From positions 1 to 64,000 of the IMG/VR virus record IMGVR_UViG_3300020180_000017: a DNA stretch of 64,000 bases; one strand, written 5' to 3'. The DNA comes from a virus. Below are positions 6,001 to 58,140 of this stretch, piece after piece. The position numbers were made by a program, and so were the translations under genes. The notes beneath the pieces are model-generated. The model saw nothing but the letters and a program-made list of their open reading frames with translations. It did not search any database and was not told the DNA's origin. Each line of letters starts with the position of its first letter. Within the stretch, counting starts at the first letter, position 1.

Positions 6001-6605
6001 TTTCTTAAAAATGAAGTTTCAGCATCTTTATTAAATTGTTTTGTTATATTAAAATCAGGTAGAATATTCCAGATTCCTTGAGTAAAACCATTATAATAAA
6101 TAGGATTTTTTATATTTAATACACTGACTGTTATTTCTTTACCTAATACTTCTTTAGTAACACCCATTTCTAATAATTGTTTTTCTTTATCTTTAGCTAT
6201 TTCTTGAATAGCGTTTAAGTTATCTGTAAAGAAAAAACCTAAAACAGTATCATTAGCAGATGTTTCACTACCTAAATATTTTTTATCAAATTTTTTAATT
6301 TTAGATTTACTAATATGAAAAACAACTTCTTTAATCTTACTATTAGGTATCTTACTTTCTATAAAAGATTTTACCTGCTCATTTGTGTAATTAGCATAAG
6401 CAGGTTCTATTGCTTTTAAATCTTCTATGTTTTTATTTTGTTCTGGACTAATAAATTCATTACTCTTTACAGTAAGGCCATCACCCTCTGTAAATAAACC
6501 AGAGAATTTAGCTTTATCATAAATATCAAGATGCACTTTAGAAAGTCTTTCTTGTTCTTCAATAGATGTATTATCATCTATGTACTGTGGTAACTTACAA
6601 GCCAT
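1..6605 (-). CDS. Giant polyvalent virion/ejected protein (>2200 aa, runs off the left edge). Contains an ART-PolyVal-like ADP-ribosyltransferase, two zincin-like metallopeptidase motifs and a possible second ART-like domain
   Basis: ATG at 6605 overlaps the upstream stop (TAATG); starts MACKLPQYID. Hand translation gives VVFHISKS..FD..GFFFTD..LNIKNP..DG..IVAFEPEQI (~5815-6330), HEILGH (4796-4811) with downstream EEALVELLG, and HEIGH (2256-2270), all in one frame that is still open at position 3. Not in the ORF track because it has no stop in the window; not every codon was checked. Confidence 0.88.
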   Translation of the reverse strand, partial: MACKLPQYIDDNTSIEEQERLSKVHLDIYDKAKFSGLFTEGDGLTVKSNEFISPEQNKNIEDLKAIEPAYANYTNEQVKSFIESKIPNSKIKEVVFHISKSKIKKFDKKYLGSETSANDTVLGFFFTDNLNAIQEIAKDKEKQLLEMGVTKEVLGKEITVSVLNIKNPIYYNGFTQGIWNILPDFNITKQFNKDAETSFLRKGGNDYFNRLKRNGSKKDYIEVKELIEKNQQDGVVGALSVDMDQDGYPEILASSIVAFEPEQIIILNSPETIAEFKAFVNKNNKLTPEQNKNINDLKEIEPSYKVFLNSEIQYAIEQLIPDKDVLTQTKDFINSLKTKSTFFNYKNEIDNLVNNVEDLLSDYLIYSHNSFSKDSEKSMIFDKSEKILISALEDLDKELQSNYKKDILKAAKIAIDEIEKVNYLEQSEKSIEKKNSILTKYIGVKENNSRIAQIIASNNYLQNKMQVDFVANSYSLNSPETFSKIRNIINNRNQINTVSNFIQSINTEYQGEVTRLVGDKLGINALSSKKIQYQKNQTNSNEGIIASEKTIRDLAATMSDRIGMPIRFEADKTKNYKGKIENGVAYINLAYATLDTAIHEILGHPIIRAIKYKEKGEKYKNDYLSKFYLNNMEYRDETDIGGNYTKESKIITEEEYKKAFFQSKEYSQLYQNLLKELETGVGKEVLDRIKKDYVNKENIYTQKGQEVYKNNVLHTAFFNEQDAKEYIKENSKYTLEEQQEEALVELLGLMTANKLDNVKDGKLISLLKRLLKEMKAFIRSLLNQKEVEIDKLPDNMTLGQLSDLLAYSNSKLILPGYEVEYTTPDNVKHKTYQEASNHVSKLAQDVKELDLNNLKLQDYKNVDSYIYGGWKYFKQNEKDFIEEPSFKDPNDINRYISTSNVTNVIKDGKMLSQDWEYIKEQYTKFAKDNNYTITYKIRESEGSFDRYMGKNSSIYAVKYFIEKNKEYEQSKEIIEEWKKVNNIQYNPEEIYSRGQEFVSIVGAYSNFDVNLMMQNLLHHIEDNEKAGGKFAISAITKPVDRKIEHLEGGGGKIKFKINPQSQDILWASNQDVYSGSVWDASEKVNKDKKSELLGVSYTKYPSLNSINTVQSNLAAVVDNLAHHHNELGIVLTGNNFRLEYDEDIPYSTKKIIDGVNNILDQKYGKLVKPEIRKSKINDTILDFLYERNGEYFYNDNSNDEISLSKERYDQLKKESYNSIQPTQTNETLKESIDSVKNKTVKYNEGSLSKKEDFEIISNNEYEEAVKKGKKGFELGTESFGYSETYNYNGFIYTQIDNDVSKEMFINEDEYQTGEVYGKIKINSKEYTSQALINTKIAALKEVAKKYPRSLIRSEVKPIKGKSNGNFGYSEEEMPFQKISSDLSQATKDNLKSIQDLTNVTINYTNEDKSYFDGNTNSININMNEVDELVTASGLSKNEVLNFVVNHEIGHAQTEYALANSDITEFEKLLKEIIKVNENNPFEDVLRGGFTINGKPRAFANVSELIADYYSNPYLITWLQSNKKNNLFHKLLLLIKKALNSIGIIKSTPTLYQELTALIESKKILIENTNNSINRENPYTIRNVVEADIKTTIFDEFELLMKVDSISNEFRDKLPEMLLNIKNMRKLLFDKQKFLQDTSIKNSVTILIKELEKIEDNPNDLISIVKQIFNISFIFKKLKAEAVNAQKITNESLKLRVLYELKEMAEEHEPFLILLSNIRLSLEATEDNNISMLTNAISKDEKLKNTRVEINLTRVLSEPRNISNDIKSIFMRNYESIVENMIYTDLESTATEAKLRFEQEILDRENDLPAANIKNQRVIKDKIASLKEKIKKLPLKENNNVKDLIAQINGDMSFLNLWVESNTISRSTLVQTLSSKIKDNELRTKEYMQQFLNQAQTKRDAYLKATNQTNIDTEKLNDPFLYELTVIDSVIYNEDTKEFDVVSHKQLGLINEYTDEYQYELNLLKKKETALQILISQGKDLKNVLESVKEDKRKFYKESVQNRYIKQVQEGFELLEEIIDGTTLSQYRGNLYQKLEEAQQQRDTDSSLDLKKIHTEAVKELQILVNDISVSRGKKESSIEYKMAIQAQKYRDIMAPYKKSVISLNNENFYRDQYELKKASLLLGSISKEDYDIWVEENTRIEISEEFYDKRKMLSETLEELRKELIKKGVLQEKNEKLKDGYITLRDINKKYREFDGVINGN
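5694..6446. repeat. Degenerate ~51-bp direct repeat (5694-5744 and 6396-6446) flanking the ART domain
   Basis: Encodes PEQNKNIEDLKAIEPAY and PEQNKNINDLKEIEPSY; spacing 702 bp (in frame). Confidence 0.85.
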
Positions 6606-7204
6606 TAACAAATTGTTTTAGGTACTTCTGTATAAAATTCTTTATAATTCTCTTCTTGTTCATATAATGCTTCATCTCCATTATAATAATCAATATCTCT
6701 TTTAATATTTTTTTGCTTGTCAAACTCTATCTCTACTAATTCTGATAAATTATTAATTATGATTTTATCTACGTCACTACTTTTATAGTTTGTAGATCTA
6801 ACTGCATTAGGCCATAATTTATTTACTACTTTAACTATTTTAGCTGCTGCTTGTTTATTATAAAACATATTTACATCTACGTATCTATATATGTCTTGTA
6901 ATATTTTTTCTTTTATTTCTATCTTATCTGTATTAAGTGGAGTTAGTTTAACTGCGTTTAACACATTAATTTCTAAAATACCCATCCTATCAAATAGTAT
7001 TTGACCTTCTCTATTATTAATATACTCCATAAAAGCATATTGTTGCATTGCTTTTTCTGCGTAGAAATACAATTTGTTATTTCTATCTTCAAATATGTTT
7101 TGTTTTATTACTTCATTTAGTATTTCTCTATGTTTATTTTCCATAGCCAGAATACTTGCTTCATCTTTTAAAGCTTCTCTTATATAATCTATTTTACAAT
7201 TCAT
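6605..7204 (-). CDS. Small hypothetical protein (~199 aa) between the giant cargo genes, with Cys only at both ends
   Basis: Track ORF 6605..7210; likelier ATG at 7204 (ATGA overlap with RNAP stop) gives MNCKID...PKTIC. Translationally coupled on both sides. Confidence 0.75.
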   Translation of the reverse strand: MNCKIDYIREALKDEASILAMENKHREILNEVIKQNIFEDRNNKLYFYAEKAMQQYAFMEYINNREGQILFDRMGILEINVLNAVKLTPLNTDKIEIKEKILQDIYRYVDVNMFYNKQAAAKIVKVVNKLWPNAVRSTNYKSSDVDKIIINNLSELVEIEFDKQKNIKRDIDYYNGDEALYEQEENYKEFYTEVPKTIC

Positions 7205-10200
7205 TGACAAGGGTTTATATCTTGTGATCCAACATTAATTCCAATTTCTTTAAAGAAATCTGTTAAAGATACAAAACTTCCTTCAGATATTTTATAAATA
7301 ATTTTATTTAAGTCAAGATTATACTTTTGAATTGATAAAATAGTACTTTTTAAAGCTTCCATACTAAAGCCAATATGTTCTGAGTTTTCATTATTAAAAT
7401 CTTTTTCTCTACCTTCTTGTTCTTCATTTGGTATTTGAATTAAGTAGTCTTTACTAGATTCTACAACTACATCTTGTAATTTTGAAATGTAGTCAATTTG
7501 TTTTTTATCACTTTTAACTTTTTTTATAACAATTACGTCATCAAGAAAAAATATTTCATCAGAACTTACTTTATCAAACGTTTTACCATTTCTAGTATAA
7601 GAAATTACAGAACCGTCTGAATCTGTAATCATATGATAAGTTTTACCATTTACGGTGTTATCAGCAATAATTTCATAATTACCATTTTCTAATAAATGTA
7701 ATTTTTTAATTAAAATTTTATGTTCATACGAAAGTCCTTTTTCATTTTCACCTACATCAAAAGAAAATATTTTACCTACTATATTATTTTCAGTATTATC
7801 CCAATAATCTATTTCAGCTTGCTTTTCAACTTGTTTTTTTAATTTAAGCTGTTTATTTTCTTCATCTACTTTTAAACTTTTTAAATAATCTTCATTAAAT
7901 TGTTCCTCAGTTATAGCATTGCTTACTTTTATTTTTTCCCAATTAACACTACCAAAAGGAGCAGCTACATAATATTTACTTCCATCTTCATTTGTATTTC
8001 TACTATATGAAATATTATCTATATAAAAACTATATGGTATTTCTTTATTGCTTTCTTGATATACAGGAATATAGTCAATATTTGTTTGTGAAGAATTTAA
8101 TAAATTATTCCAATCATATTTATTAATTAAATAATCTAATGCTGTAGCGTGAGAAGGTTCACCAAGTTCTTTGTAATATAATAAAGGTTCGCCTTTTAAT
8201 TTTCCTGATTTTAATTGACTTACTATCCAATCTCTTTGCATATCCAAATCTACGGGGTCTACATCATTTTCTCCAAAAAAGTATACACCTGTTTCGCCTG
8301 TTATTATCCAATTAATATATTTTTCAACAGATTCTTTAGTGGAATTTGTTTGTATTAAATAACGTAATTTTTTATTTGATGTAAAAGGGTTTCCGAAATG
8401 TTGAGCACTTGATCCTGGCATAAAGTTTTGAGTATCTATTCTTGTAGTAACAATTCCATCATTTGTAAAAACTTTTTTTTCTTCTTTAAGAACGCCCCAA
8501 GGAATAATTTTTATATTTTCAGATTTTGTTTTATTACCTAATTGAGAATATATTTCATTAGGACTAATTACTTCATTTAAATTATTAATTTCAAATTCTC
8601 TATTAATAAAATCTTGAGAATAAATAACTTTTTGTTCTTCTGAAAGTTTATTCTTATATCTGTATAATTCAGTTACACTTTCAAATTCTTTTAATTTATT
8701 TACTATTTCTGGATTTCTATTAATTACTTTTAATTCTGTTTTTGGTTGTGTATTAGAAACTTCATTTACTGTATTTAAAACTATAGTATTAGGAATTTTA
8801 TTATTTATAATTTTTACAATTCCATCATTTGAATCTTTCATATTATCAAACCCAAAGTCACTATCAGAATGAATATCATCTAGTATTCTATTATTTCTAA
8901 TATCGTCTATTATTTTTTTTATTTCATTTTTATTATTAATAATACTAATATTATTTTCACCAGTTACTGTTAATAATTGTTCTTCCAAAACAGATGCCCT
9001 TTTATTATTATTAATTTTAATCAATAAAAAAGGATAATTTTTACCTATTGAATTTTGTCCAAGAGAAGTGTCTCCAACAATAAAATATTTATTAGCATAC
9101 TTCCCAGAATATCCACTAGAATAGTAGCTTATATTTTTAAATAATTTATTATTTTCTTTAAATTTATATTTATTATCTCTATTAATAATTTCTTTAGGAT
9201 TAACTTCATTTAAAGAAGTTATATTTTCAGGTGTATATTCTCTTTGAGAAACTTTATTAGATGTATTTAAAACTTTATCTAATTCTTCTCTCCAATTAGG
9301 ATTTGCCATATTAATTGTAGGAATACCTTTCCTTCTAGCCATTTCTACAGCTTGTCCTGTGCCTCCTTTTGGTCTTAATGGATTGGAAGTTTCTTCAGCA
9401 TAAAATAAAACAAAATCAACAGGTGTATCTAAATTTTCTCCAAATATTTGATTAGTATTTCTAGCCATAAGTTTTTTACCCCCCGATTTTAAAGCTGAAG
9501 GATTTGGATGAATTTCTTCCATTACTTTCATTTCTCTATTACCTATTACTCCTGTTACTCCAAATAAATTCTTTTTACTTGTACCAGCAGAAAAAGCTCT
9601 ATCTGCTCCTTCTTCATCTAAACCAACTTGATTACCATGTAGTTTACTTAATTTTTCAGATTCTTTTTTTCTTTCATCATAAACCTTTTTATCATAACTT
9701 TCAGTGGCAGGAAAAGTTTTTCCTGTATTTAGTGTATATCTTCTCTCTAATTCTTTAGCAAGTTCTGTCATTTGAGAAAGAACATTTGCTGGAGTTTCTC
9801 TACTACCTATTCCTGCATATGTAAATGTAGGAATACTAGATTTAAAAGGTAATTTGTTAAATTCTGGTTTATTAATATCTATTTTTATAGGATTAACTTC
9901 ATTTAAAGAAGTTACTTCTTTTTCATTTATCACTGCTTGAGCCATTCCATTATAGTAATCTTTTAATCCTACATTATCTTGTTTTCCTCTATTAACACTA
10001 AATTGAGGGTTAAATTTATAGAATTCTAAGTAGAAATTAGTGGCTAATCCTAATTTTTTATTACTGGATAAAAGTTGGTAATTTTTAAATGCTAATTCAA
10101 ATTCTGGAATTAATATTGATAGAGGCAGTAGTGAAGTAATGTTAAATCTATTTTGTGAAAATCCTCCTTGTTTAAAAGCTAAATAAGTAAATGATTTAAT

Positions 10201-13200
10201 GAGGTCATTTACATCCTTAGTAAATTCACTTTGTTTATCTTTTAATTCATTTGAAGGTCTTCCTGTAAAACCGTTAAAAGATAGTAAACTATTTAATTCT
10301 TTAATATATGTATTTTCTTGAGATTTTATATTTTCACCTCCTAAATTTAATTTTACAACGTAGTTATCAGTCCTGCTAAAACCTTCTCCTGGCATTTCAT
10401 TTTTTATCTTTTCTATTATTATATTGTTTAATATAGAGTAAGTATTAGTTAATCTTTCAAAAGATTTTGGATAATTATTTTTTATAAAATATAATTTAGC
10501 AGCAAATGTTTGAATTGCATTTCCTTTAAATGCACTTCTAGCAATAATTCCTTTGCTTGAAAAAGGTACATTCATATTTTCCACTATAAATTGCATGTAC
10601 TCTTGAAATAATCTTTTTGCTAAAGTTCTTTTTAAAGAATTTGTACCGACAAAACTTTTAACTTTTTCACTAAAGTAATTCAGGGTTTCTTCATCTGTAA
10701 AATAAGGCAGGATAGCTTTTGAAATCTTAATTGATAATTCGCTATTATTAAATAGAGACACTACGCTTTCCTTTGAAAGGTAATTAATTGAATCTGCTGT
10801 AAATAGTGGAACTCCATTTTTTTCAACACCCAGATCAGCAATTTGTTTTTCCATCAATCTTTTAGCTCTTGCTTGAAAAGTATTTGTGATTTTTTTTGTG
10901 TCATCACTATAGTTTTGTGTTAAGTCTTTAAAACTTTGAGCTTTATTATTAAAATGTAAGTAAGTTGCTAAAATATTTAAACTCATTAATTTATATAATT
11001 GAGTTTTACGTACATCTGTAAATTGATCTTTCTTTAACTGTTTTAAATTTTCTGGTGTAATTCTAAAGTTTGAAATATTCAGAAGTCCTTTAATTTCTTC
11101 TTCTTCTGTTACACCATATGATTTAGCTATGTCATTAAACTTAATAAATGGGTTACTCTTTTTTAAGAGATTATATCTCCTAATTATTCCAGTATTCAAC
11201 ATATCCACAATTCTATCAAATGGCACATTCAATGTCAATAGATACTGAACTACTCCTAAATTTTCATATTCAATACCCAGTAAAAAATATGTTGGATTAC
11301 TAGGATTATCCACTGCTTCTGTAACTAATTCTGAATTAATTTCGTTTTTATTAGTTAACGGTGTATTATTAATATTTAATTGAGCTATCCCTTCCACATC
11401 ATATAATCCACTCAAAGATATTTTATTATTACTTACAATAGTATTAAATTCTTTTTGAGTTAGTAATGGAACATATACTTTTTTTACATTCATTTCTACA
11501 ATACCCTGTTGTAAGATTGCTGTTCTTACATTACCCACAGCATATACACCCAAAGCTCTTTGAGCTCCTTGCATAGTTTTATGCATATTTAGCTTGCCTG
11601 TAATGTAATTCAATATAGACATACCTTGAGGTAACTTTAATTTTCCTCCAACAGGAAGATCCTCTTCTTTAATAAATCCCATTTCAATACCATTTTGTCT
11701 TGCAATGTCTTTAATTCTTGAAGAAGAGTTTGGTTTAGTTAATCTTTCATATTGTAAAGGATGTTTTAAAATACTTGTCATTGATTCATTTAATTCATTT
11801 TCAAGCATTTGTTTTTGAGAAAAATCAAGACTTTTTAATTCTTTAAATGTTTCAATCAATTGTTGTTCTATTTCATTATATATAGCGTTACTATCTATAT
11901 CTATATCTCCAAACATAGTAGACAACAAATCTCCACTACTTTTATATATGGAACTACGAACTGCACTATTCCCTTTAAGCGATTTTAGTAATGATTTTAA
12001 TTCTTCTTTATTTTTTTCTATTTCTTTATTTGCTTCTTTATCAATATAAATACCATTTCTTGTTAAAGAAGGCATTAAAACAAATAATTTATCAATGTCA
12101 AAATCCGCACCTGATTTAGAAGTTATTTCGTCATAAGCTTGTATTGTCCACCCCACTGTTGGAGATAAAAACTCTTTAATAGTTAATATCTCCATAGAAT
12201 TTTGTTCTTGTGTTGGTATTCTATAAGCTATTATTGTTAAAGACTTTTTATGTTTTTTTATAAACTTGCTATCTTTTAATAATTCGTTAAGTCTTTTTAA
12301 TGTACCTATTGGTTGATTATCATTATCTTCATCTTGTAAATTCAATAGTTTTTTATACTCTCCAACTAATCCTACTCTAACATCAGCTTCTTTTACATAT
12401 AGTTTTTCATTAATCTTTTCTAAGTCGTAAAAATTAAGCTTATCAAAATAAGCATTTGATAGTAATGTAAATTGTCCTCCTTTTACTTTTTGAACTCTAA
12501 GAGTCTTATCTATGAGTCCAAAAAGTAAATCGTTTACTACTGAAGTAATTCCACTAAACTCAAAGGGAGTTATTAATTTTCCATCCATACCTACCTTTAA
12601 CGAATCTTTTACGTTGACATTCATTTCTAAATTATCCGCTTCTTTTTGCAATTTTTCTATGAATGCTGCTTGATTTTTAACTACTATATTATTACCTTCC
12701 AACTCGATACCAAGTTCTTTGAATAATTCTATTTTATTAATATCAATTAGATTTTTTAAAGCTTGCTTATAATTCTTATATAAAGATTCTATTTCAGAAT
12801 TTGCACTGCCATTTTCAAAAAAGGTAACAAAAAATAATTTTCTAAGTTGGCTTCCTATTATAACTAAACTATCTTTATCATTATCTGTTTTTAATTGTTC
12901 TTTTAAATCTCCACTATATACTTCAGTAATATTTTTACTTATATCACTAAGTAAGTTTACATCTCCTGTATATTGTAATTTAGTTGCACTTCTATGTTTT
13001 ACGTAGGCAATACCATTTTTTATACTTTGATCCGTTACCTTTAGTAATTCTTTACTTCTATATATTAAAGAAGGTAGTAATGGAGCCAAAGACATTTTAT
13101 CATAGGCTGGTCTTTCACTATTTACAATTCCACCACTTAATTGATATTTTAATATGGTAAGATTATATCTATCATCTTTATTTATTAATCCTTCCAATTC

Positions 13201-16200: not shown

Positions 16201-17418
16201 TGAAATCTTAACTAACCCTTCTGCAAACATACCAATTGCTTTTTCATTACTTTTTTGTATAGTAATATACTCTTGCACTAACTCTATTGGTATTTGAGGA
16301 AAGTTTTTATTGAACCAAGCTTCTCCAAGTATTCTGGATTCTTCATTCACTACAAAACTATTATTATCTGCTATTCTAAATTGAGCATCATCTTCATAGG
16401 AAGGTAGTATTTCATCAATAGCTTTTTCTTCAAAAGTTCTTCTATCTACAGCCATAGTATAGTTGTCATTCCTATCTTTACTGGCTGTTGCTTTAACATA
16501 TTCATTTCCACTTTTAAATACTTGTATTGGCAATACTGTAATATCAGCATCAATATCTGTTCTTTGTTTTAATAGTGTTGCATATCCAGATTGCTGTATA
16601 CTATCTGATTCTCTATATGAATCATAGTACGTTCCTAATACGTTTCTTCTATTTTGTGTAGATGTTTTTAAATCTATTATAAATACTTTTCCTGTATTTT
16701 TATCAATAGCAAGAAGATCAATAGTTCCAGCTACGTTTTTACCATTAATAACACCCCATAACGTAGGTATATCAGATATTAATTCTAAATTATTTGTAGT
16801 TTTTTTGATTTCACTAAAAATCATAAACAAATCGGATAGCATATCTCCTGTAAAAGGTAAAGATTCTCCTTTATCTATTTTGTTATATTTTTCTATTAAA
16901 TCTTTTTCTGAAATTATATTATTTGAAATAAAATCTCTTAATAAACTATCAATTATAGTTCCTCTATCAGCATCTCCTTTTTTAAAAACTCCAGTCTTTT
17001 TAATTAACGTACTAACTCTATCATATATTTTTCCAAAAGAATCAATATATTCATTTGAATTATTAGGATTTACTATTAAAATGTTTGAATTTAATATTTT
17101 TAATTTTTCTTTTACTTTTTCTATCTCAGCTACAATATTAATTGTAGTTGGTGAAAGGTATTTTTTATTTATTTCAGTAAAATCAGGTAATACTATAGGT
17201 GTAAAAGTATTTTGAGGAATACTCAAGCCTTTTTTTAATTTATTTAATTCTGCATTTAATCTTTTACTTTCTGCATTTACAAAAGTATTTTTAACTGTGG
17301 CTTCAGCTTCTTCAAGTGACATACCTTTACTCCTTAATGCCTCTGCATTTTTAAGTAATTGTTCTTTATTTTCTTTTGTTACGAAATCTATTTTTTCTAA
17401 ACACTTTGATAATGGCAT
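7201..17418 (-). CDS. Virion-packaged two-barrel RNA polymerase of crAss-like phages (3405 aa) with N-terminal PD-(D/E)xK and zincin domains and C-terminal SLOG/DprA-like and DUF4326-like domains
   Basis: Catalytic SGADFDIDKLF (DFDID at 12091-12105) and AYRIPTQ. Accessory motifs: AGTIDLL..IIDLKT; YYHEAFH..LEEKLA; YAGIGSRETP..GADRAF..MARN..GGTGQA; HFGNPF..SHA. Confidence 0.92.
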   Translation of the reverse strand: MPLSKCLEKIDFVTKENKEQLLKNAEALRSKGMSLEEAEATVKNTFVNAESKRLNAELNKLKKGLSIPQNTFTPIVLPDFTEINKKYLSPTTINIVAEIEKVKEKLKILNSNILIVNPNNSNEYIDSFGKIYDRVSTLIKKTGVFKKGDADRGTIIDSLLRDFISNNIISEKDLIEKYNKIDKGESLPFTGDMLSDLFMIFSEIKKTTNNLELISDIPTLWGVINGKNVAGTIDLLAIDKNTGKVFIIDLKTSTQNRRNVLGTYYDSYRESDSIQQSGYATLLKQRTDIDADITVLPIQVFKSGNEYVKATASKDRNDNYTMAVDRRTFEEKAIDEILPSYEDDAQFRIADNNSFVVNEESRILGEAWFNKNFPQIPIELVQEYITIQKSNEKAIGMFAEGLVKISKYANKSTYYHEAFHVAFNLFIPVEEQNNILDEASKLFNISRGTTQSTDKFLNELEQESEYYNSQSNDVKLEEKLAFGFETFKKNKENANFPSKILDFFKNLFAKIQSFLSGKENIRNLYNKIDNGYFSTKKVITTATGVNRMSIFNEKGKEVLNAVEANYFSDEADYHISKLLSTKEAKAKSVTIYGLNDPIIAKKIYESLERTFNRLLNTYKKSDKENKNAGKDEKYDKVEIILKNFNAFIKFHLNNSNLDVNIKDADALINSIEYIEKEEEEEVDLYSLQEGGDKKSVYQFASKPIRNLFRLLPNATWTKDGIIETVDEFGFHKMVDSVTLLNRVALHMAGESNETKFFEKLFSEATYKKIPELFYLKGLMKMPSYMQGAVRVPSEANFGLESASLYAEVFRTFSRPIVPLKVTKTISIKVGEEEFTRFIYIDAISSSEKIILQEWIDNFTVNTKANKYVEVNEQTFIKRVLKIPLINKLDVKEKDLLAFFDVIGIKLSQETVENEWENIRDNGLLLYDFYTDTQEVNGVLLTVLNDPAYNQNPLGYIYDKENPMENFVIRRVIKTLQKAEAKHTKIIQPIAYRNSEGELQSIISDANNLTKNAYEINNSENLDDLYERLPQLDNDLFRNSNIRKQLFDESGLRDTEFSIEIQNYNGINEEMTAKLDESDMLIMDVGNLTQNNIIQGPRTESKATYYALAIVNNKYPDSLPNGYLSADLENIVNFYEPHKAWMKKESSSNWGMFDFMTKEEHSDFNLGSFKIALERYVNVATSLFEKKIIDLFGDNSSFVKKIYIDERNETPRKIEDIDYRKIYRDFIIKNMVHDIEFNIMNSGNLAYYKDFTKRVARLASTGIPVNGLESTKQFLENSQIQTLAEIVNVNNIDVSKTSKTSVIPDVFSNENIVDNTVKNINKVNNVYGIKNSVDNNEKLKKERLSLNEANKADGQAYINIDAYRQFLLNTGGRWNKYMEATYEYEGLFYKKEILKRKLSEKETDRFLELEGLINKDDRYNLTILKYQLSGGIVNSERPAYDKMSLAPLLPSLIYRSKELLKVTDQSIKNGIAYVKHRSATKLQYTGDVNLLSDISKNITEVYSGDLKEQLKTDNDKDSLVIIGSQLRKLFFVTFFENGSANSEIESLYKNYKQALKNLIDINKIELFKELGIELEGNNIVVKNQAAFIEKLQKEADNLEMNVNVKDSLKVGMDGKLITPFEFSGITSVVNDLLFGLIDKTLRVQKVKGGQFTLLSNAYFDKLNFYDLEKINEKLYVKEADVRVGLVGEYKKLLNLQDEDNDNQPIGTLKRLNELLKDSKFIKKHKKSLTIIAYRIPTQEQNSMEILTIKEFLSPTVGWTIQAYDEITSKSGADFDIDKLFVLMPSLTRNGIYIDKEANKEIEKNKEELKSLLKSLKGNSAVRSSIYKSSGDLLSTMFGDIDIDSNAIYNEIEQQLIETFKELKSLDFSQKQMLENELNESMTSILKHPLQYERLTKPNSSSRIKDIARQNGIEMGFIKEEDLPVGGKLKLPQGMSILNYITGKLNMHKTMQGAQRALGVYAVGNVRTAILQQGIVEMNVKKVYVPLLTQKEFNTIVSNNKISLSGLYDVEGIAQLNINNTPLTNKNEINSELVTEAVDNPSNPTYFLLGIEYENLGVVQYLLTLNVPFDRIVDMLNTGIIRRYNLLKKSNPFIKFNDIAKSYGVTEEEEIKGLLNISNFRITPENLKQLKKDQFTDVRKTQLYKLMSLNILATYLHFNNKAQSFKDLTQNYSDDTKKITNTFQARAKRLMEKQIADLGVEKNGVPLFTADSINYLSKESVVSLFNNSELSIKISKAILPYFTDEETLNYFSEKVKSFVGTNSLKRTLAKRLFQEYMQFIVENMNVPFSSKGIIARSAFKGNAIQTFAAKLYFIKNNYPKSFERLTNTYSILNNIIIEKIKNEMPGEGFSRTDNYVVKLNLGGENIKSQENTYIKELNSLLSFNGFTGRPSNELKDKQSEFTKDVNDLIKSFTYLAFKQGGFSQNRFNITSLLPLSILIPEFELAFKNYQLLSSNKKLGLATNFYLEFYKFNPQFSVNRGKQDNVGLKDYYNGMAQAVINEKEVTSLNEVNPIKIDINKPEFNKLPFKSSIPTFTYAGIGSRETPANVLSQMTELAKELERRYTLNTGKTFPATESYDKKVYDERKKESEKLSKLHGNQVGLDEEGADRAFSAGTSKKNLFGVTGVIGNREMKVMEEIHPNPSALKSGGKKLMARNTNQIFGENLDTPVDFVLFYAEETSNPLRPKGGTGQAVEMARRKGIPTINMANPNWREELDKVLNTSNKVSQREYTPENITSLNEVNPKEIINRDNKYKFKENNKLFKNISYYSSGYSGKYANKYFIVGDTSLGQNSIGKNYPFLLIKINNNKRASVLEEQLLTVTGENNISIINNKNEIKKIIDDIRNNRILDDIHSDSDFGFDNMKDSNDGIVKIINNKIPNTIVLNTVNEVSNTQPKTELKVINRNPEIVNKLKEFESVTELYRYKNKLSEEQKVIYSQDFINREFEINNLNEVISPNEIYSQLGNKTKSENIKIIPWGVLKEEKKVFTNDGIVTTRIDTQNFMPGSSAQHFGNPFTSNKKLRYLIQTNSTKESVEKYINWIITGETGVYFFGENDVDPVDLDMQRDWIVSQLKSGKLKGEPLLYYKELGEPSHATALDYLINKYDWNNLLNSSQTNIDYIPVYQESNKEIPYSFYIDNISYSRNTNEDGSKYYVAAPFGSVNWEKIKVSNAITEEQFNEDYLKSLKVDEENKQLKLKKQVEKQAEIDYWDNTENNIVGKIFSFDVGENEKGLSYEHKILIKKLHLLENGNYEIIADNTVNGKTYHMITDSDGSVISYTRNGKTFDKVSSDEIFFLDDVIVIKKVKSDKKQIDYISKLQDVVVESSKDYLIQIPNEEQEGREKDFNNENSEHIGFSMEALKSTILSIQKYNLDLNKIIYKISEGSFVSLTDFFKEIGINVGSQDINPCQ
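9195..9914. repeat. 27-bp perfect direct repeat (taggattaacttcatttaaagaagtta) at 9195-9221 and 9888-9914, flanking the SLOG-like domain
   Basis: Both copies read directly from the sequence; each encodes TSLNEVNP; spacing 693 bp (in frame). Confidence 0.9.
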
Positions 17419-17463
17419 CTTTTATTTTTTACTGAGTACAGATTTTTATTAGAAAAACTTCAC

Positions 17464-20400
17464 TTATTTACATTGAATAAGATCATTCAATTCATTTATT
17501 TCTTTTACAATTCTATTGTAGTCACTTACTTTTTTTACTGATTTAACAGGGCCATATGCACCTTCTAAACTCTGTATTCCAAATTCTATTAGTCCTATAT
17601 CTATTGATGATTTACTTGTTAATTCGTGTATTTCATTTAATAAAGAATTTGATACCTTTTGGGGTTCTGATTTTAATACTGCTAACGCTGCATTATATCT
17701 AGCATTTATTAATTTAATGTTTTCGTATGCTTGAATTTCACTATCAAATATCTTACTTTGTTGTCCAAGTTTTTCCTTATTTTCTACTCTTTTTATAATA
17801 GATAGTAATACTTTTTTTAAAGCTTCTTCTTTATTTTTATCTCCAACCAATTGAGTATTTACAAGATGAGAAGAATACCACCCTTTTATTTTATCCATTT
17901 GAATTATACCAAGTGATATAATTAATTCTTCCTGTCTTCTTTTTTCTATTTTAGCTATTTCAATTTCTAAATCACTCACAGGAATAGGTGCATCAACTTC
18001 CTTTTGGGGTTGGGGTTGTTTATCTAATAGGGATTCTACTGCTTTGGCAGCATTACTATAAGATTGTATTTCTAAATTTGGAAAGGATTGTCTTAATAAA
18101 TCAATTATTTCTGGATTAGAGTTTAGTAAACCATCATTTACTAATATACCTCTAATATCATTAATATTTGTAATCATCCCATCTGTCCCAAGTAATATAA
18201 ATGCACCATCTCTATAAGCGTGTCCTCCTCCTGTTGTTTGAGCAGACACTTCAGGTGCTGTTAATGGTGCTACATCTAATCCTCCATGTCCTCTTTTTGG
18301 ATTAATGCCATTATTCATTAATTCAAATAAATCTTTTAATGCCGAAGCTAAACTGGATTTACCCATTCCATGAGCAGGGATATTAACACCCCCAGCTTCC
18401 GATGCTGCTGTAAAATCAACTGCAAATCCTTCATCTAAATCAGCCCGATTATTACTGTCTTTAGATGATATTCTATTCCAAATAGTTTTTAATTTTTCAA
18501 AAATCTCTTTTCTTTTTGATTTTTCTTCATTAGTGAGTTGCGGAGCATTTACAGTTGAGAATTTGTCTATAACACTTAAAACTTCTCCTCTTGATTTTTC
18601 TTCTTCTGCTTTTTGCCTATTTGCTATTTCAAGTATTTCTTTTGTTCTTTCAAAATCAGAGTATTCATTTCTACCATATAATATTTCATCTCTATTTAAA
18701 AAGTCAGTGTTGTTTTTCTTATTATATTCTTCAATTTCATTCTTATGCCTTGATTGCATTTCTTCATACCTATTTTCAGCATTAGTTAATTCATCATTCA
18801 ATGATCCCACTTCACTTGTAGTTTGAACATCAGTAATTGGGTTTTCTTTACTATAAGAAAAAGTAAAATAAGGAGTGAGTGGTAAACTTCTTAAATTATT
18901 ATCTTTATCTATTAATGGTTTGTAATTTGTTTTTAAATTATTTAATAAATACTCTGTAGCATTTATTTCAACCTCTTCAAATTTGTCATTCAGTATTTTT
19001 AATTTAGTATTCTTATCTAAATCCACAAACGGTAAAGATAGTGTTAAATCCATTGGATCAAAAGATATTTCTTCTGTTCCACTCACTTTAAATAAAGTTA
19101 ATTTTCCATTACTTACTTTTATTACGTAAGGACTATTTTTGTTTTTAGTGGGTTCAAATAAAAGTTTTTTACTTTTTGGAAGAGGAGGCAGTGATTTTAT
19201 AAATAAATATTTAGAAATAAACTTTAATACTAACTCTTTTTGAGCATCGCTCAGTTTTGAGTAATCTAAATCAAATATGTTTTTTACGCTGTTTTTTACT
19301 ACTTCATTTTCATTATCTCCTATTGTTGCTGGAATAACTTTAATATGTTCTTTACCATGTATTTGTACTATAAATGAACCCACACTAAAAAATTCTCCAT
19401 TAAAGTTTACTTTGTTGTCATAAGTTTTCTTTGTTATAAAGGTTAATTTTGGTTTTGCAATTACACTATTTACCAATATATATTGATTTCCATAAGGCTG
19501 TTTCCCTCTACTGGATTCCATAAAGTAAATAGGTATTTTAGTAGCACCTGTTTTATCTCTATCTATTAATTCAATAGCTTCTTCTAATTGTTTTACTTTA
19601 TTATCAACAATGCCATAAACATTTAATATTATCTCTTCCTCACTCATTGCTGGATCAATCTTATCTTTATAAATGCCAGCACTTTTACTTAAATGACTTA
19701 AAAATATATTTTTATCTATATTAAACATGACAACATCACCTGTGTCATCCTGTGTAATTTTTTCATCAACTTTAATCTTAACATATTTTCCATCACTATC
19801 CACTAAAGCAATTACGTGGCCTTCCTGTACTACTCCTGCATCTATACCAGCATTTACTTTATCTGTAAATCTATTTTTTCTTTGTGATTCTTCTGAAAAA
19901 TCTCCTTTTTGAATAACTAATTGAAATGAATTCTCACTTATGAATGACCCAAATCCAGGCATTAACATTAATGCATTCATTTTAATGTCATATTTAGAAG
20001 CTATAATAGGCATAGCATCTATTTCTCCTATTTCTGGTATTATAACTTTTTTTGTTACGTCAACTTTATTTACTACTTCTACTAATGAAATAACAGATTT
20101 GTTTGGAGTCAAATATGGAGTTGCACTATCTTTTATTTCAACTTCCACTTCATCTTCAATAACAACTCCATTAAATAAAGCATCTAATTTTCTTAGTGAG
20201 TCCACTGTTAAATCTGCTTTATACTCTACTTCATCCTGCATTTCAAATATTCTTCCATCTGCATATTTCCTATAGCTTTTACCATTAAACACAACTTCTT
20301 GAAATACACCCACTACAGGTTTAGTAGGGGAAAAATGATTTTCTATTGCTTCTGCTGTTTCATTACTAACTTCAGGAATTATTGTTTTTAAAGGTGCTGG

Positions 20401-23400
20401 TGTTAAAGAGTCAATATCTTCTTGAGTAGTTCCTTCTGGATAATATATATAGTTATCTCCTACTTTATCAAGAAGCCATACTTCCTTATCTTTTTTGTAT
20501 ACGAGTGGTGCAATTTTTACAGGAATATCTTTTTTCTCTAACTTTTTTAAAGCTGCTTCAGCTAAATCTTTATTACTGTATATTTCACCAGAAACGCCTT
20601 GATTAGTTTTAACATTTGCTATTTCATATTCTGTTACTACTCCATCTTCATCTTTTATTTCTCGAATAAAGTATATTGGATCTTTATCAATTATAATTTC
20701 TTCTTTTGCAAGTATTTTAGCTTTTATTTCTGCAATTTCACTTTCAAGTAAATCTATTTTTTTTAGTGTTTCTTTAATGTCATTCTGTTGTTTTTCTATA
20801 TCTATAATACGTTCTTTTTCAATATCATCAATAGAGCCTCTTTCTATATTTAATTCCTCTTGTTTCTTTAATATTTCATCTTTATTAAGAGCAATTAATT
20901 CTTCTTCTTTTTGTTTTAATAATTCTTTTAATTGTTCTATTTCACTTTTTACTTCTGATTCTATTTCCGTTGTTATTTCTGGAGTAGTAGTTTTTGCTAT
21001 TCTTATTTTTTCTTTTAAATATTCTAAATACTCTTCAGCATTCATATTTTTTAAGAGATTTGCTAAGTATTTTGCATTAATAGCTGCATTAGTAAGAGAT
21101 GTTACACTATATATATTTCTAATTTGTTGAGAAAGACTATGTGCTAAATCTGAAAGTTCATTTTGTATTAATACTGCTTGAGCTTTTATATTTTTTTCAT
21201 TTTGCTCAGAAGATATATTAGGATCACTTTTTAAAGAGGCTAATTTGCTTTCAAAAAATATTTTATTAAGATCTCCATAAATAAATTTAGTTACATCTTC
21301 GTATGAAGATAAAGGATTTTTTAAAATTGTAGTATTAATAAACTCATTTAGTGGGTCATTTATTAATGCATCCAATTTGTTTTGTGCTTTAACAAGCCTG
21401 TCTTCTTCTCTTTTTTTACCATCCTCTGTTATTGTTTTACTATCTATGTTTTGTTTTGCTTGATGAATATCTCCATATGCTTCTACAAATTTTAGTAATG
21501 TATCTTGCAATACATTTATTTCTGAATTTTCAGATTTAAACCTTGCAGTGAATATTTCATCTTTATGTTTTTTTACAGCATTATTAAAAATATCTTCATT
21601 AATAACGTGATGAAGAGCTTCATTTTTTCTATTTTCAGCTAATATATTTAAACTTTCATAAGTAATTAAACCACTTTTACTTTGAAATTTATCAAGGTTA
21701 TAATCTTCATTACTTAATACTTTTTTAGATATACTAACATATCTGTCATATATTTTTTCATTTAATGATTCAGGGTCAAGTCCAAATTCTCTTACTTGAG
21801 ATATAGGAGTATTTTTTACTGATTCTAAAGAAGAAAGTATTCCTTGTCCAAATCCAGCATTGTTGCCAGATATAAAATAATCTTTAAAAGTTTGTTCTCT
21901 AAGTACATCAGCAAATGCTGGGCTGACATTATCCAACGAATCAGCTAATATATTTTGTTCATTTAATTTAGTAATCTTTGATTGAGTGGCTTTCATCATA
22001 GCAGTATATTCTAACGCTATTGCATCTAATCTATCTTTATTATCTCCAGGAGCTTTTTTTAGTTGATCCCATTCAGTTTTTAACTCTGCTGTTTTATTTG
22101 CATCCTGCCAAGTATTGTATTTGTTTTGTAGTTTTGCTATTCCAAATACATCTGCATCCTTTTTATTTTTTATTTCTCCATAACCTACTCCACTAAGAGA
22201 GTACCAATTACTATTTATTTTATTTCCTTCTTTATCAAGTTTTCTTTTTTGTAAGTTAGCTTGTGCTACTGCCATACCTCCACCCATTATTCCTCCAAGA
22301 AGTATACTTGTAGCTAATTCTGTATCTCCACTTCCACCAAATAGTGTGGAAGCTTTTTCTGTTTGGCCAGCTATTTGTTGAAAATACTGCCATAAAGCAG
22401 AAGAATCAGGGTTGTAATGAAGGTATTCTTTGTCATTAGACGAATTTATTCTTTCAATAGCCAACTGAGGATTTTCTTCTAAGTATCCTTCTATAACCGT
22501 ACCTTTTATCGCAAGTTTTACTCCTTGAACTACTCTATTATTAAGAAGTTTACTAAGTTCTTTTTTAGCTACAACTTGTTGTGCGTTATTTACTGCACCC
22601 CTTATTGATGGAGCAGCTTGTTTTCCCAATGCTTTAAATAATAACTTTGTTTGAAACATGTTTGTTAAAGAAAGCAATGCTGCATTTGCTAAAAAAGTAT
22701 TTGAAGCTTTATTATTTTTATACTCTTCAAATTCTTCTTGAGATAAATTAAATAAAGGGTCAGTAAAATCTTTCCTTCTTTTATTTAAAGCGTCCACTAC
22801 TCCTTTTGTTTCAAAAAATGATTCAGAAGCAACTGAATAAGCCCATTGAATAGGTGCAGCAATTTCTTTACTGCCAAATAAAGCGTTTGAAGCATTTCCT
22901 AATCTTCCTGTTAACACTCTACCACCAGAGGCTATATTCATTGCAGCAGACGCTTCTTCAGCTACTGTACCTAGTTCTCCAACTACTTGCGCTCTTTTAG
23001 CAAATGACAACCCTTTGCCAATCTTTGAAAATATTCCAGCAACAGGTATCATTGCGGATAGCATAAATGCAAACCCATCTGCTGCTTCACTCCCCCAAAA
23101 TTCAGAAGTAGTCATTTTTTCAAATGCTCCCATACTGTCATATTCAGAAGATTTATAAGTTCTGAACATTGGGTCGTCCTTCATACCTTCTTGTACTTTA
23201 TTAAAGTAATTGGAAAAGCCATTATCTGCCACTTTTAAAAAATAATCTTCTCCAAAAATATTAAGGGGGTTTAGAGCTGAACCAACATATCCCAATCCTT
23301 CAACAAATTTTAACCCTGCTTTAGCTACTATGTTAGTAGCCATAGTTCCAATTGTTTTTAAACCTCTTGTAAGTACATTTTGTTTCATCCAATCATCGTA

Positions 23401-23766
23401 ATACATTTGTTCATTCTCTTGGATTGTTTTTGTTAAGTCATAACCATATTTATCATTAAGGTATTTTTTTTCTTCAAAATTATCAAAGTAAGAATTAAAA
23501 TCTTTTTTTACAAATAATGTAGGATCAAATAAGTCTTGTTCTTGTTTTGGATTATACTCTCGTAAAGTAAGCTTGGCCATTTCTCTAGTTGTCAATGGCT
23601 CTGCATTTTTATTGCGGGCATATTCTCCTTCATCAAATGTTCCAAAATCAAAAGGTTTATACTGTTTTAATATTGCTACATCAGTTGCATTCTTAAAGAA
23701 AGAATTAGCTGCATTATCTTTATCTATGTCTGATTTAAATATGTCCCATTCATTTATATCTGGCAT
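17464..23766 (-). CDS. Giant ejected/cargo protein (2100 aa) with an N-terminal Gly/Ala-rich hydrophobic region (possible channel former) and coiled coils
   Basis: Lies immediately upstream of the virion RNAP; hydrophobic segments FAFMLSAMIPVAGIF and ILLGGIMGGGMAVA; single Cys at the penultimate residue. Confidence 0.75.
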   Translation of the reverse strand: MPDINEWDIFKSDIDKDNAANSFFKNATDVAILKQYKPFDFGTFDEGEYARNKNAEPLTTREMAKLTLREYNPKQEQDLFDPTLFVKKDFNSYFDNFEEKKYLNDKYGYDLTKTIQENEQMYYDDWMKQNVLTRGLKTIGTMATNIVAKAGLKFVEGLGYVGSALNPLNIFGEDYFLKVADNGFSNYFNKVQEGMKDDPMFRTYKSSEYDSMGAFEKMTTSEFWGSEAADGFAFMLSAMIPVAGIFSKIGKGLSFAKRAQVVGELGTVAEEASAAMNIASGGRVLTGRLGNASNALFGSKEIAAPIQWAYSVASESFFETKGVVDALNKRRKDFTDPLFNLSQEEFEEYKNNKASNTFLANAALLSLTNMFQTKLLFKALGKQAAPSIRGAVNNAQQVVAKKELSKLLNNRVVQGVKLAIKGTVIEGYLEENPQLAIERINSSNDKEYLHYNPDSSALWQYFQQIAGQTEKASTLFGGSGDTELATSILLGGIMGGGMAVAQANLQKRKLDKEGNKINSNWYSLSGVGYGEIKNKKDADVFGIAKLQNKYNTWQDANKTAELKTEWDQLKKAPGDNKDRLDAIALEYTAMMKATQSKITKLNEQNILADSLDNVSPAFADVLREQTFKDYFISGNNAGFGQGILSSLESVKNTPISQVREFGLDPESLNEKIYDRYVSISKKVLSNEDYNLDKFQSKSGLITYESLNILAENRKNEALHHVINEDIFNNAVKKHKDEIFTARFKSENSEINVLQDTLLKFVEAYGDIHQAKQNIDSKTITEDGKKREEDRLVKAQNKLDALINDPLNEFINTTILKNPLSSYEDVTKFIYGDLNKIFFESKLASLKSDPNISSEQNEKNIKAQAVLIQNELSDLAHSLSQQIRNIYSVTSLTNAAINAKYLANLLKNMNAEEYLEYLKEKIRIAKTTTPEITTEIESEVKSEIEQLKELLKQKEEELIALNKDEILKKQEELNIERGSIDDIEKERIIDIEKQQNDIKETLKKIDLLESEIAEIKAKILAKEEIIIDKDPIYFIREIKDEDGVVTEYEIANVKTNQGVSGEIYSNKDLAEAALKKLEKKDIPVKIAPLVYKKDKEVWLLDKVGDNYIYYPEGTTQEDIDSLTPAPLKTIIPEVSNETAEAIENHFSPTKPVVGVFQEVVFNGKSYRKYADGRIFEMQDEVEYKADLTVDSLRKLDALFNGVVIEDEVEVEIKDSATPYLTPNKSVISLVEVVNKVDVTKKVIIPEIGEIDAMPIIASKYDIKMNALMLMPGFGSFISENSFQLVIQKGDFSEESQRKNRFTDKVNAGIDAGVVQEGHVIALVDSDGKYVKIKVDEKITQDDTGDVVMFNIDKNIFLSHLSKSAGIYKDKIDPAMSEEEIILNVYGIVDNKVKQLEEAIELIDRDKTGATKIPIYFMESSRGKQPYGNQYILVNSVIAKPKLTFITKKTYDNKVNFNGEFFSVGSFIVQIHGKEHIKVIPATIGDNENEVVKNSVKNIFDLDYSKLSDAQKELVLKFISKYLFIKSLPPLPKSKKLLFEPTKNKNSPYVIKVSNGKLTLFKVSGTEEISFDPMDLTLSLPFVDLDKNTKLKILNDKFEEVEINATEYLLNNLKTNYKPLIDKDNNLRSLPLTPYFTFSYSKENPITDVQTTSEVGSLNDELTNAENRYEEMQSRHKNEIEEYNKKNNTDFLNRDEILYGRNEYSDFERTKEILEIANRQKAEEEKSRGEVLSVIDKFSTVNAPQLTNEEKSKRKEIFEKLKTIWNRISSKDSNNRADLDEGFAVDFTAASEAGGVNIPAHGMGKSSLASALKDLFELMNNGINPKRGHGGLDVAPLTAPEVSAQTTGGGHAYRDGAFILLGTDGMITNINDIRGILVNDGLLNSNPEIIDLLRQSFPNLEIQSYSNAAKAVESLLDKQPQPQKEVDAPIPVSDLEIEIAKIEKRRQEELIISLGIIQMDKIKGWYSSHLVNTQLVGDKNKEEALKKVLLSIIKRVENKEKLGQQSKIFDSEIQAYENIKLINARYNAALAVLKSEPQKVSNSLLNEIHELTSKSSIDIGLIEFGIQSLEGAYGPVKSVKKVSDYNRIVKEINELNDLIQCK

Positions 23767-26450: not shown

Positions 26451-26487
26451 TTTTGTAAATTTAGTTTATTATTAATAACTCCGCAAA

Positions 26488-32587: not shown

Positions 32588-32799
32588 TACATATATCTTT
32601 GCATCCCACCTTTTCTTGCTTGTGGAGGTATGTACTGCTCTTCTGGAGCTTGTTCTGGAGCTTGTCCTTCACCCATTAACTGTTGCATCAACATTTGTTG
32701 GCCTTCAGGGGAAAGCTGTTGTATTGCTTGTAATATTGCTTGAATCATTTGTGATTCATCTTGTGGGGCTTGGCCACCATCTTGATACCTTTTGTACAT
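32587..32799 (-). CDS. Small Gln-rich virion protein (70 aa) with YQDGG/RKGG motifs
   Basis: Coupled ORF sharing the xxGG motif of its neighbours. Confidence 0.65.
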   Translation of the reverse strand: MYKRYQDGGQAPQDESQMIQAILQAIQQLSPEGQQMLMQQLMGEGQAPEQAPEEQYIPPQARKGGMQRYM

Positions 32800-40685: not shown

Positions 40686-40704
40686 TTTATTTATTTAAGA
40701 TTAG

Positions 40705-58130: not shown

Positions 58131-58140
58131 AATATTATAA

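Follow-up and report, generated by a model that had tools for sequence, protein, structure and literature searches.

Terminal cysteines at the gene breaks of the crAss-like virion RNA polymerase module and a candidate head-to-tail link between ejected proteins

A cysteine-depleted cargo series

We analysed the cysteines (Cys) of a series of giant predicted cargo proteins encoded in a stretch of viral DNA, the first 64 kb (positions 1 to 64,000, hereafter the window) of the 72,551-bp IMG/VR record IMGVR_UViG_3300020180_000017, whose completeness was estimated at ~52%. The window is AT-rich (G+C 25-33%) and nearly all of its long open reading frames (ORFs) lie on the minus strand, including those for the large terminase (58144-60405) and the portal (55320-58166), which were identified with PHROG profiles. 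Four consecutive ORFs that we refer to as the cargo series close this block of terminase, portal and structural genes and share its strand, a position typical of the Crassvirales module. Translation gave proteins of 2100 (A), 3405 (B), 199 (C199) and more than 2201 (D) amino acids. A (17464-23766, minus strand), the first protein of the series, has a gp47-like N-terminal part and a sole Cys at its penultimate residue, Cys2099 (..LIQCK; codon 17470-17472), with none at the N-terminus. B (7201-17418, minus), a predicted virion RNA polymerase (RNAP) with added domains, has only Cys6 (MPLSKC; 17401-17403) and Cys3404 (..INPCQ; 7207-7209). The short link protein C199 (6605-7204, minus) has only Cys3 (MNC..; 7196-7198) and Cys199 (..KTIC; 6608-6610), and D (3-6605, minus), which is open at the contig start, has only Cys3 (MAC..; 6597-6599) in its 2201 visible residues. 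A 45-nucleotide gap separates A from B, the stop codon of B overlaps the next start (ATGA), and C199 and D overlap in TAATG. A previous sequence-only reading of this DNA had picked out these residues by manual scan; translation bore out each of them, and also covered the ORF at 3-6605, which that reading had left unchecked.

Together the four proteins contain 6 Cys in 7,905 residues (0.076%), each no more than 6 residues from a terminus. The other ORFs of the structural module (32.8-61.7 kb), taken for comparison, contain 152 Cys in 8,908 residues (1.71%). At that rate ~135 Cys were expected in the cargo series (Poisson P(<=6) = 2e-49), and the probability that 6 randomly placed Cys would all fall in the 42 terminal positions was 2e-14. 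As in the Cys suppression of the N4/DEV type, Cys was far rarer in the cargo than in the proteome; total absence of Cys, termini included, was not found.

The RNAP assignment of B, made in the sequence-only reading, was upheld by homology. B carries the DFDID catalytic motif of two-barrel RNAPs (residues 1772-1776; 12091-12105, minus), which aligned with DFDVD at 1483 of crAss001 gp50 and DFDID at 1361 of phi14:2 gp66. Searches with tblastn matched B to proteins annotated as 'putative RNA polymerase' in crAss-like phages (crAss001 and many uncultured ones) at 24-26% identity (E 4e-14 to 6e-8), and local blastp gave E values of 3e-19 against phi14:2 gp66 and 7e-13 against crAss001 gp50. The structure of phi14:2 gp66 is PDB 6VR4, an entry named 'DNA-dependent RNA polymerase'; phmmer searches of PDB with B and with its RNAP core returned no relevant chain, and the homology to 6VR4 is that found by local blastp. 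Residues 139-446 of A matched the N-terminal part (80-366) of the 1797-aa first cargo protein of phi14:2 (E 8e-12). A further domain of B, which we call X (residues 331-550; 15769-16428, minus), matched the C-terminal domain of crAss001 gp47 (2070-2307, E 1e-13) and is an internal landmark in fused homologues. Its place inside B means that the break between A and B in the window precedes the domain, and that in crAss001 follows it. Just upstream of X, residues 227-322 (16453-16740, minus) gave a weak match to a PD-(D/E)XK nuclease (PF12705, PDDEXK_1, E 0.0038, below the cut-off). An identity of 50% to the last cargo protein of a metagenomic relative (locus L001, 2369 aa) was seen over residues 522-1401 of D, a domain of ~850 residues. 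In that relative Cys is present near the N-terminus but not at the C-terminus, where a gp49-like domain lies (1892-2347). D itself runs off the contig, and by analogy with L001 its missing end is predicted to be without Cys. Pfam (E <= 0.01) and PHROG searches of A, C199 and D returned no family.

Of the domains that the earlier reading held to have been acquired by B, the SLOG/DprA-like one was verified (residues 2533-2722; 9253-9822, minus; phrog_768, E 8.9e-39), with 55-67% identity to the same domain in giant homologues. For the DUF4326-like one, residues 2940-3115 gave a weak match of 13.2 bits (E 0.15), short of the cut-off of 25. The proposal that such domains had lost their Cys was weakly borne out; the embedded SLOG domains have none, compared with 1-4 in 4 of 5 stand-alone homologues, and the DUF4326 part of the claim shares the sub-threshold match.

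Because of the DFDID motif and RNAP core of B and the gp47 homology of A and of the X domain, the four ORFs are identified, by homology, as the virion RNAP cargo module of a divergent crAss-like phage. According to one study (PMC10172136), crAss001 gp47, gp50 and gp49 were found in virions by mass spectrometry and are thought to leave through the tail partly unfolded. The three cargo proteins of phi14:2 are structural and proteomics-confirmed in the notes of the GenBank record. By their homology to these crAss001 and phi14:2 proteins, those of the window are predicted virion components.

We then examined C199. Exhaustive phmmer searches gave distant matches in which its residues 94-190 resemble a domain that follows M-x-C in the last cargo proteins of other crAss-like clades. 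This domain is ~100 residues long, and all 9 sequences of the family compared have C3. The N-terminus of C199 itself (MNCKIDYIRE..) resembles the start of the same domain (MPCKIEIRKT..) that is matched by residues 94-190, and C199 may be a tandem duplication of it. As a query of viral contigs C199 gave no match, nor a homologue of similar length, and AlphaFold2 modelled the protein alone with a mean pLDDT of 35, too low for use. The type of protein recurs: short proteins with Cys at both ends are found in loci L070 (290 aa), L024 (307), L023 (421) and L003 (478).

Cysteine pairs at gene breaks

The terminal Cys were followed through 15 annotated genomes, comprising Steigviridae (crAss001, DAC15, phi14:2), Intestiviridae (p-crAssphage, cr110_1, crAss002, cr8_1), Suoliviridae (cr4_1, cr55_1, cr50_1, cr118_1, cr60_1, cr7_1, cr10_1) and the Fipvunavirus Flavobacterium phage Fpv1; Crevaviridae and the epsilon and zeta groups lie outside this sample. 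All 18 reference junctions had Cys on both sides. The outer ends were free: none of the 15 first cargo proteins had a Cys in its first 10 residues and none of 15 last cargo proteins had one in its last 10, a count that takes in ctcc615 (whose upstream partner was not fetched) and leaves out cr10_1 (whose last ORF was not read to its end). The cleanest case was phi14:2, in which the 1797-aa protein has Cys only at -1, the 2180-aa protein only at 3 and -2, and the 1421-aa protein only at 3. The first protein (gp47 in crAss001, its counterpart in DAC15) and its presumed partner are encoded on opposite strands in these two phages, and in crAss001 the gp47 stop lies ~11 kb from the gp50 start; both ends nevertheless keep their Cys, indicating that the feature acts at the level of the protein and not as a DNA junction motif.

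Several side observations were made in these genomes. An in-frame M-S-C lies downstream of the annotated start of crAss002 gp33 (32 codons; L062:12088-12190) and of cr110_1 gp_23009 (14 codons; L057:16437-16485). M-S-C fits the N-termini of orthologues (p-crAssphage gp44, MSCGNIK), and translation probably begins there, downstream of the deposited starts. In cr10_1 an ORF beginning MKIICPNL.. (L076:19770-19940), absent from the annotation table, follows the 4460-aa protein. Two cargo-like proteins encoded upstream of the series have a single Cys each, at -2 in p-crAssphage gp47 (857 aa, L058:5588-8161) and at -8 in crAss002 gp30 (L062:1393-3066), and the cr110_1 homologue has no Cys.

The number of polypeptides into which the module is divided varies between lineages, from 2 to 5. 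Steigviridae have three, gp47, gp50 and gp49. The last two are fused in Intestiviridae, where p-crAssphage gp44 (4070 aa) holds gp50-like and gp49-like regions; in Suoliviridae, Fpv1 and most metagenomic relatives it is the gp47-like and gp50-like parts that are fused, into proteins of 4,400-5,700 aa. Other loci encode four or five proteins, as L045 does (2713, 1293, 987 and at least 1311 aa). The fusion points are without Cys: the sole Cys of the 4401-aa Fpv1 protein is at -2, and the 4551-aa protein of cr55_1 has Cys only at 4026 and 4548. The break points also differ in position. They lie before the X domain in the window and L011, after it in crAss001 and phi14:2, before SLOG in L003, L033 and L045, right after SLOG in most loci, and, in the window, L001 and L016, farther on by ~680-820 residues or by an entire D domain; a Cys pair was present at each of them. 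The more distant phages in which the giant protein with SLOG is undivided (L036-L040, L042, L043, L047) had 0-1 Cys in it, none of them terminal. Breaks at non-homologous positions each bring a Cys pair, and the pair thus tracks the break itself rather than a particular domain. Cys pairs were found at split genes and were missing from fused ones, in favour of the earlier reading.

A search with B as the query retrieved 64 other giant proteins of 1,881-5,750 aa. They contain 131 Cys in 256,781 residues (0.051%), 72 of which lie within 10 residues of an end. A Cys was present in the last 10 residues of 55 of the 64 proteins and in the first 10 of 17; five had an N-terminal Cys only and four had one at neither end. 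Many of the fused RNAP homologues keep one internal Cys in the RNAP core, ~1,100-2,000 residues from the C-terminus, in the motif ..Y-C-E-[IV]-[ML]-[ILV]-x-x-W-F.. (P0007, P0009, P0012, P0016, P0017, P0023, P0025, P0026, P0030, P0036, P0037, P0039, P0045 and others); B is without it.

A profile of the SLOG domain retrieved 51 IMG/VR loci, of which 11 near-identical ones were removed and 40 analysed. A junction was counted if at least one partner had at least 1000 aa and less than 0.3% Cys, and Cys were scored in the last 10 residues of the upstream and the first 10 of the downstream protein. Among the 58 junctions, 31 had both Cys and 16 neither, 6 had Cys on the N side only and 5 on the C side only (Fisher P 1e-5). 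At control junctions of the same 40 loci both Cys were present in 3 of 70. At eight of the 11 discordant junctions one neighbour is a non-cargo gene that has been inserted, for a ferritin-like protein (L013, L017, L030) or a DUF5856 protein (L011), and two are junctions of the last cargo protein with a Cys-rich protein. The ferritin-like genes (L013:10393-10890, L017:12484-12975, L030:13657-14154; PF00210, E 1e-17 to 6e-24; 163-165 aa, with internal Cys) are placed exactly between a giant ending in Cys and a next giant starting MISCP.., and the DUF5856 gene of L011 is placed likewise. L023 has a GIY-YIG endonuclease gene in a like place, flanked by two cargo proteins too short for that junction to count. 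In L024 (7280-7400) two ORFs of 2202 and 1269 aa with an 11-nucleotide overlap divide the RNAP core without a Cys pair; this split is probably a frameshift or an assembly error and not a true gene break.

A second, independent set of loci was fetched with the C199-like domain family, and 7 of 9 were examined, L067 and L073 being left out because their match statistics equal those of L066 and L072. Here the domain opens the last cargo protein (M-[PA]-C-[KP]-I-E-I..), always after a giant ending in ..YKKTC or a near variant, and all 8 cargo junctions had both Cys. In general, the paired Cys were found at positions 3-6 (once 10) on the N side and -1 to -4 on the C side, with junction spacings of -10 to +120 nucleotides. 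TGT and TGC were used 27/5 and 27/8 times at the terminal Cys against a background of 228/55, that is, in the background proportion. Recurrent motifs of the C-terminal tails include ..YKKTC, ..DPFTC and ..KLC(Q). Both proposals of the earlier reading, that terminal Cys would be kept in homologues and that the C-terminal Cys of one protein would be matched by an N-terminal Cys in its neighbour, were thus supported, the former by the 55 of 64 giants and the latter by all three sets of junctions.

A candidate head-to-tail link and its alternatives

What could the paired termini do? The best reading, in its weaker form, is at least a direct pairing of neighbouring termini. We lean, by a modest degree, towards the stronger proposal that the C-terminal Cys of one cargo protein is disulfide-linked to the N-terminal Cys of the next, a covalent head-to-tail link suggested by the sequence comparisons. 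Selection has stripped nearly all Cys from the cargo, as in other ejected proteins that cross the envelope, and retains exactly one, no more than ~10 residues from the terminus, wherever a protein of the series adjoins its neighbour. The intermolecular disulfide, made within the virion, would then substitute for the peptide bond of a split polyprotein, giving A-S-S-B-S-S-C199-S-S-D in the phage of the window and gp47-gp50-gp49 in crAss001. The split module would act as a continuous thread, packaged at fixed stoichiometry and drawn in unfolded form, protein after protein, along the tail channel. With stubs of 1-10 residues past each Cys the joint would be slim enough to fit, with no further Cys in the proteins the connectivity would be unique, and the reducing host cytoplasm would open the links and free the subunits. 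In its full form, a single covalent thread of ~6,000-8,000 residues in all crAss-like phages, ejected in gene order and reduced to subunits by the host cytoplasm, the model is possible but more doubtful than the link alone. The sequence-only reading had proposed such a disulfide chain for ordered ejection; every comparative prediction of it held, and the disulfide, the order of ejection and the reductive release are what we infer from them.

The disulfide was preferred because it accounts for the co-occurrence of Cys at junctions, the free outer ends, the loss on fusion, the extreme position and the purge of other Cys. In PMC10172136, purified crAss001 virions are described with disulfides in the tail barrel, the fibre hubs and a gp57 dimer, all at the tail and portal vertex, indicating that Cys in crAss virions can be oxidised. 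The same source gives constrictions of 25-50 Å, through which the joint with its short stubs would fit.

A number of points weigh against this interpretation. Virions are assembled in a reducing cytoplasm and the habitat of gut phages is anoxic. The case for a disulfide, or for a contact between termini, consists of sequence patterns, and as the loci are related their junctions do not count as separate events. Once there are two or more links, other topologies match the number of Cys just as well; the middle protein could be cyclised, for instance, and the first joined to the last. A search of the 72.5-kb record for a thioredoxin, glutaredoxin or Erv-type oxidase gave no match, which says little, the record being ~52% complete and the Erv control search having found no match in any of 14 control genomes. 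Some junctions fit less well. The Cys of crAss001 gp50 is at -9 and that of cr10_1 at -11, and the junctions of cr110_1 and crAss002 fit only when the second in-frame Met is taken as the start. The discordance in L003 comes from a 1446-aa protein with Cys at -18, and the 478-aa protein of that locus ends in Cys at the locus edge, its partner not in view. In L024 the 307-aa protein ends in ..FYSC and the following ORF is without an N-terminal Cys. The same holds for the gene products that follow p-crAssphage gp47 and crAss002 gp30, and these lone near-C-terminal Cys indicate that a terminal Cys can have another use. Three genomes of Intestiviridae, p-crAssphage (gp39, gp37; L058), ctcc615 (L055) and cr8_1 (L074), do have annotated thioredoxin genes, at a distance of a few kb from the cargo module.

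The lone Cys of gp47, gp30 and the L024 protein speak for a different function, in which the terminal Cys would be bound elsewhere, to Cys of the portal, capsid interior or tail, in a homodimer or through a bridging metal, and serve as anchors or packaging tags. That crAss001 structural proteins are disulfide-bonded to each other (PMC10172136) and that H-C occurs at 3 of the 4 Suoliviridae C-termini first examined would agree with this. We consider it unlikely, as it leaves unexplained why the C-terminal and N-terminal Cys of neighbours are coupled, why the outer ends are always free (0 of 15 first N-termini and 0 of 15 last C-termini) and why Cys are lost when genes fuse; in general, moreover, no conserved His or second Cys stands beside the terminal Cys. 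About as improbable, in our estimate, is a non-covalent docking of consecutive termini, with Cys as a contact or redox-sensing residue or as a processing or recognition signal and no disulfide under natural anoxia. It would be in keeping with the anoxic gut and reducing cytoplasm, with the recurrent tail motifs, and with the conserved ~100-residue domain that follows the N-terminal Cys in one large clade. However, Cys is the sole invariant residue of termini that are otherwise highly diverse, it is strongly selected against elsewhere in these proteins while a non-covalent contact could use any residue, and the pattern is also present in phages of aerobic hosts, phi14:2 and Fpv1.

An origin at the level of DNA, as a by-product of a junction signal containing TGT (for translational coupling, frameshifting or read-through) or of chance with shared ancestry, has very little to recommend it. 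In its favour, two of the three junctions in the window are start/stop overlaps and TGT is the commoner codon. The gp47 and gp50 Cys are nevertheless on opposite strands in crAss001 and DAC15 (and in crAss001 far apart), the gaps, Cys positions and codon proportions are those given above, and the chance probability was 2e-14 for the window alone. A DNA motif or translational coupling was rejected as the origin on the grounds of the opposite-strand pairs and of the variable gaps and positions. Split inteins and trans-splicing were also rejected: no Hint domains were found (no Pfam match at E <= 0.01 in A, C199 and D, and in B only the weak PDDEXK_1), and Cys lying 1-6 residues from the ends leave no room for intein halves.

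Relation to known systems and neighbouring genes

The module of the window resembles that of Crassvirales (crAss001 gp47, gp50 and gp49; phi14:2 gp66) in its DFDxD motif and core homology, its gp47-like first protein and its gene position, and shares the terminal-Cys pattern with crAss001, DAC15, phi14:2 and p-crAssphage. It differs in its low identity (~24%), in its cut sites, in its extra domains, SLOG among them, and in having a link protein of 199 aa as well. We confirmed that the pattern, a new feature of a known system, spans the three Crassvirales families sampled, Fpv1 and the examined crAss-like metagenomic loci. No title or abstract opening in the literature searched describes terminal Cys in the cargo proteins of crAss-like phages. 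In the available part of PMC10172136 'cysteine' does not occur, and its seven uses of 'disulfide' all refer to the tail or portal vertex; neither word occurs in the preprint version of the phi14:2 paper or in the text of PMC13434306.

Like the proteins of the window, those of Schitoviridae (N4 gp50, DEV gp71-73) include a giant virion RNAP that crosses the envelope and has almost no Cys. The N4 RNAP, however, is one polypeptide with zero Cys and a T7-like fold, whereas the crAss module consists of 2-5 polypeptides of the two-barrel type with one Cys per internal end. As the earlier reading had said, the N4 virion RNAP is without Cys; this is stated in PMC11445570, where the Cys suppression of N4-like ejected proteins is explained by passage through the periplasm. 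For N4 an unfolded 'beads-on-a-string' ejection of a single chain has been modelled (PMC13434306), and the proposed crAss thread would be similar to it. The internal virion proteins gp14, gp15 and gp16 of T7 and gp7, gp16 and gp20 of P22 leave by way of the tail, either ahead of the DNA or together with it (PMC10172136), and among the titles and abstract openings of the literature searched no covalent linkage is reported for these ejectosome proteins.

Diphtheria toxin and the clostridial neurotoxins consist of two chains joined by one interchain disulfide, cross a membrane unfolded and are reduced in the target cytosol. The likeness to the proposed cargo thread would be one of working principle only, without homology; the toxin chains come from one nicked precursor and use internal Cys, whereas the cargo proteins are separate products that would be joined end to end, up to four of them.

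The crAss-like phages are the most abundant human gut viruses. How ~700 kDa of RNAP proteins pass a narrow tail is posed as an open question in PMC13434306 and PMC10172136. If the full thread model is true, every evolutionary cut in the polyprotein gene would be bridged by a Cys pair in place of the missing peptide bond, and a virus would have a new way to order and meter the injection of proteins. Unique connectivity would then be a second reason for the depletion of Cys in ejected proteins, besides the avoidance of oxidation in the periplasm. The pattern may also serve annotation: it points to likely true starts (crAss002 gp33, cr110_1 gp_23009) and flags pseudo-splits such as that of L024, and a rule of one Cys per junction would help to pick the ORFs of an ejected series in uncultured phages.

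Upstream of the series are four further Cys-poor ORFs (23766-32668, minus strand; 894, 635, 637 and ~786 aa) with 6 Cys in 2,860 residues and no terminal Cys. They occupy the same place as the gp44-46-like muzzle and cargo genes of crAss001, and a PHROG search with them gave no match; they are context and lie outside the chain. The only two Cys of the 635-aa protein (26488-28395, minus) form a CxxC (270, 273), and the 894-aa protein has Cys at 184 and 217. The ORFs beyond them, at 32.8-50 kb, contain 1.0-5.8% Cys, except that at 39399-40694, which has none. The earlier description of these as Cys-rich tail proteins held for the Cys content with that one exception, and for the tail identity in part, virion or structural names being assignable to some of them.

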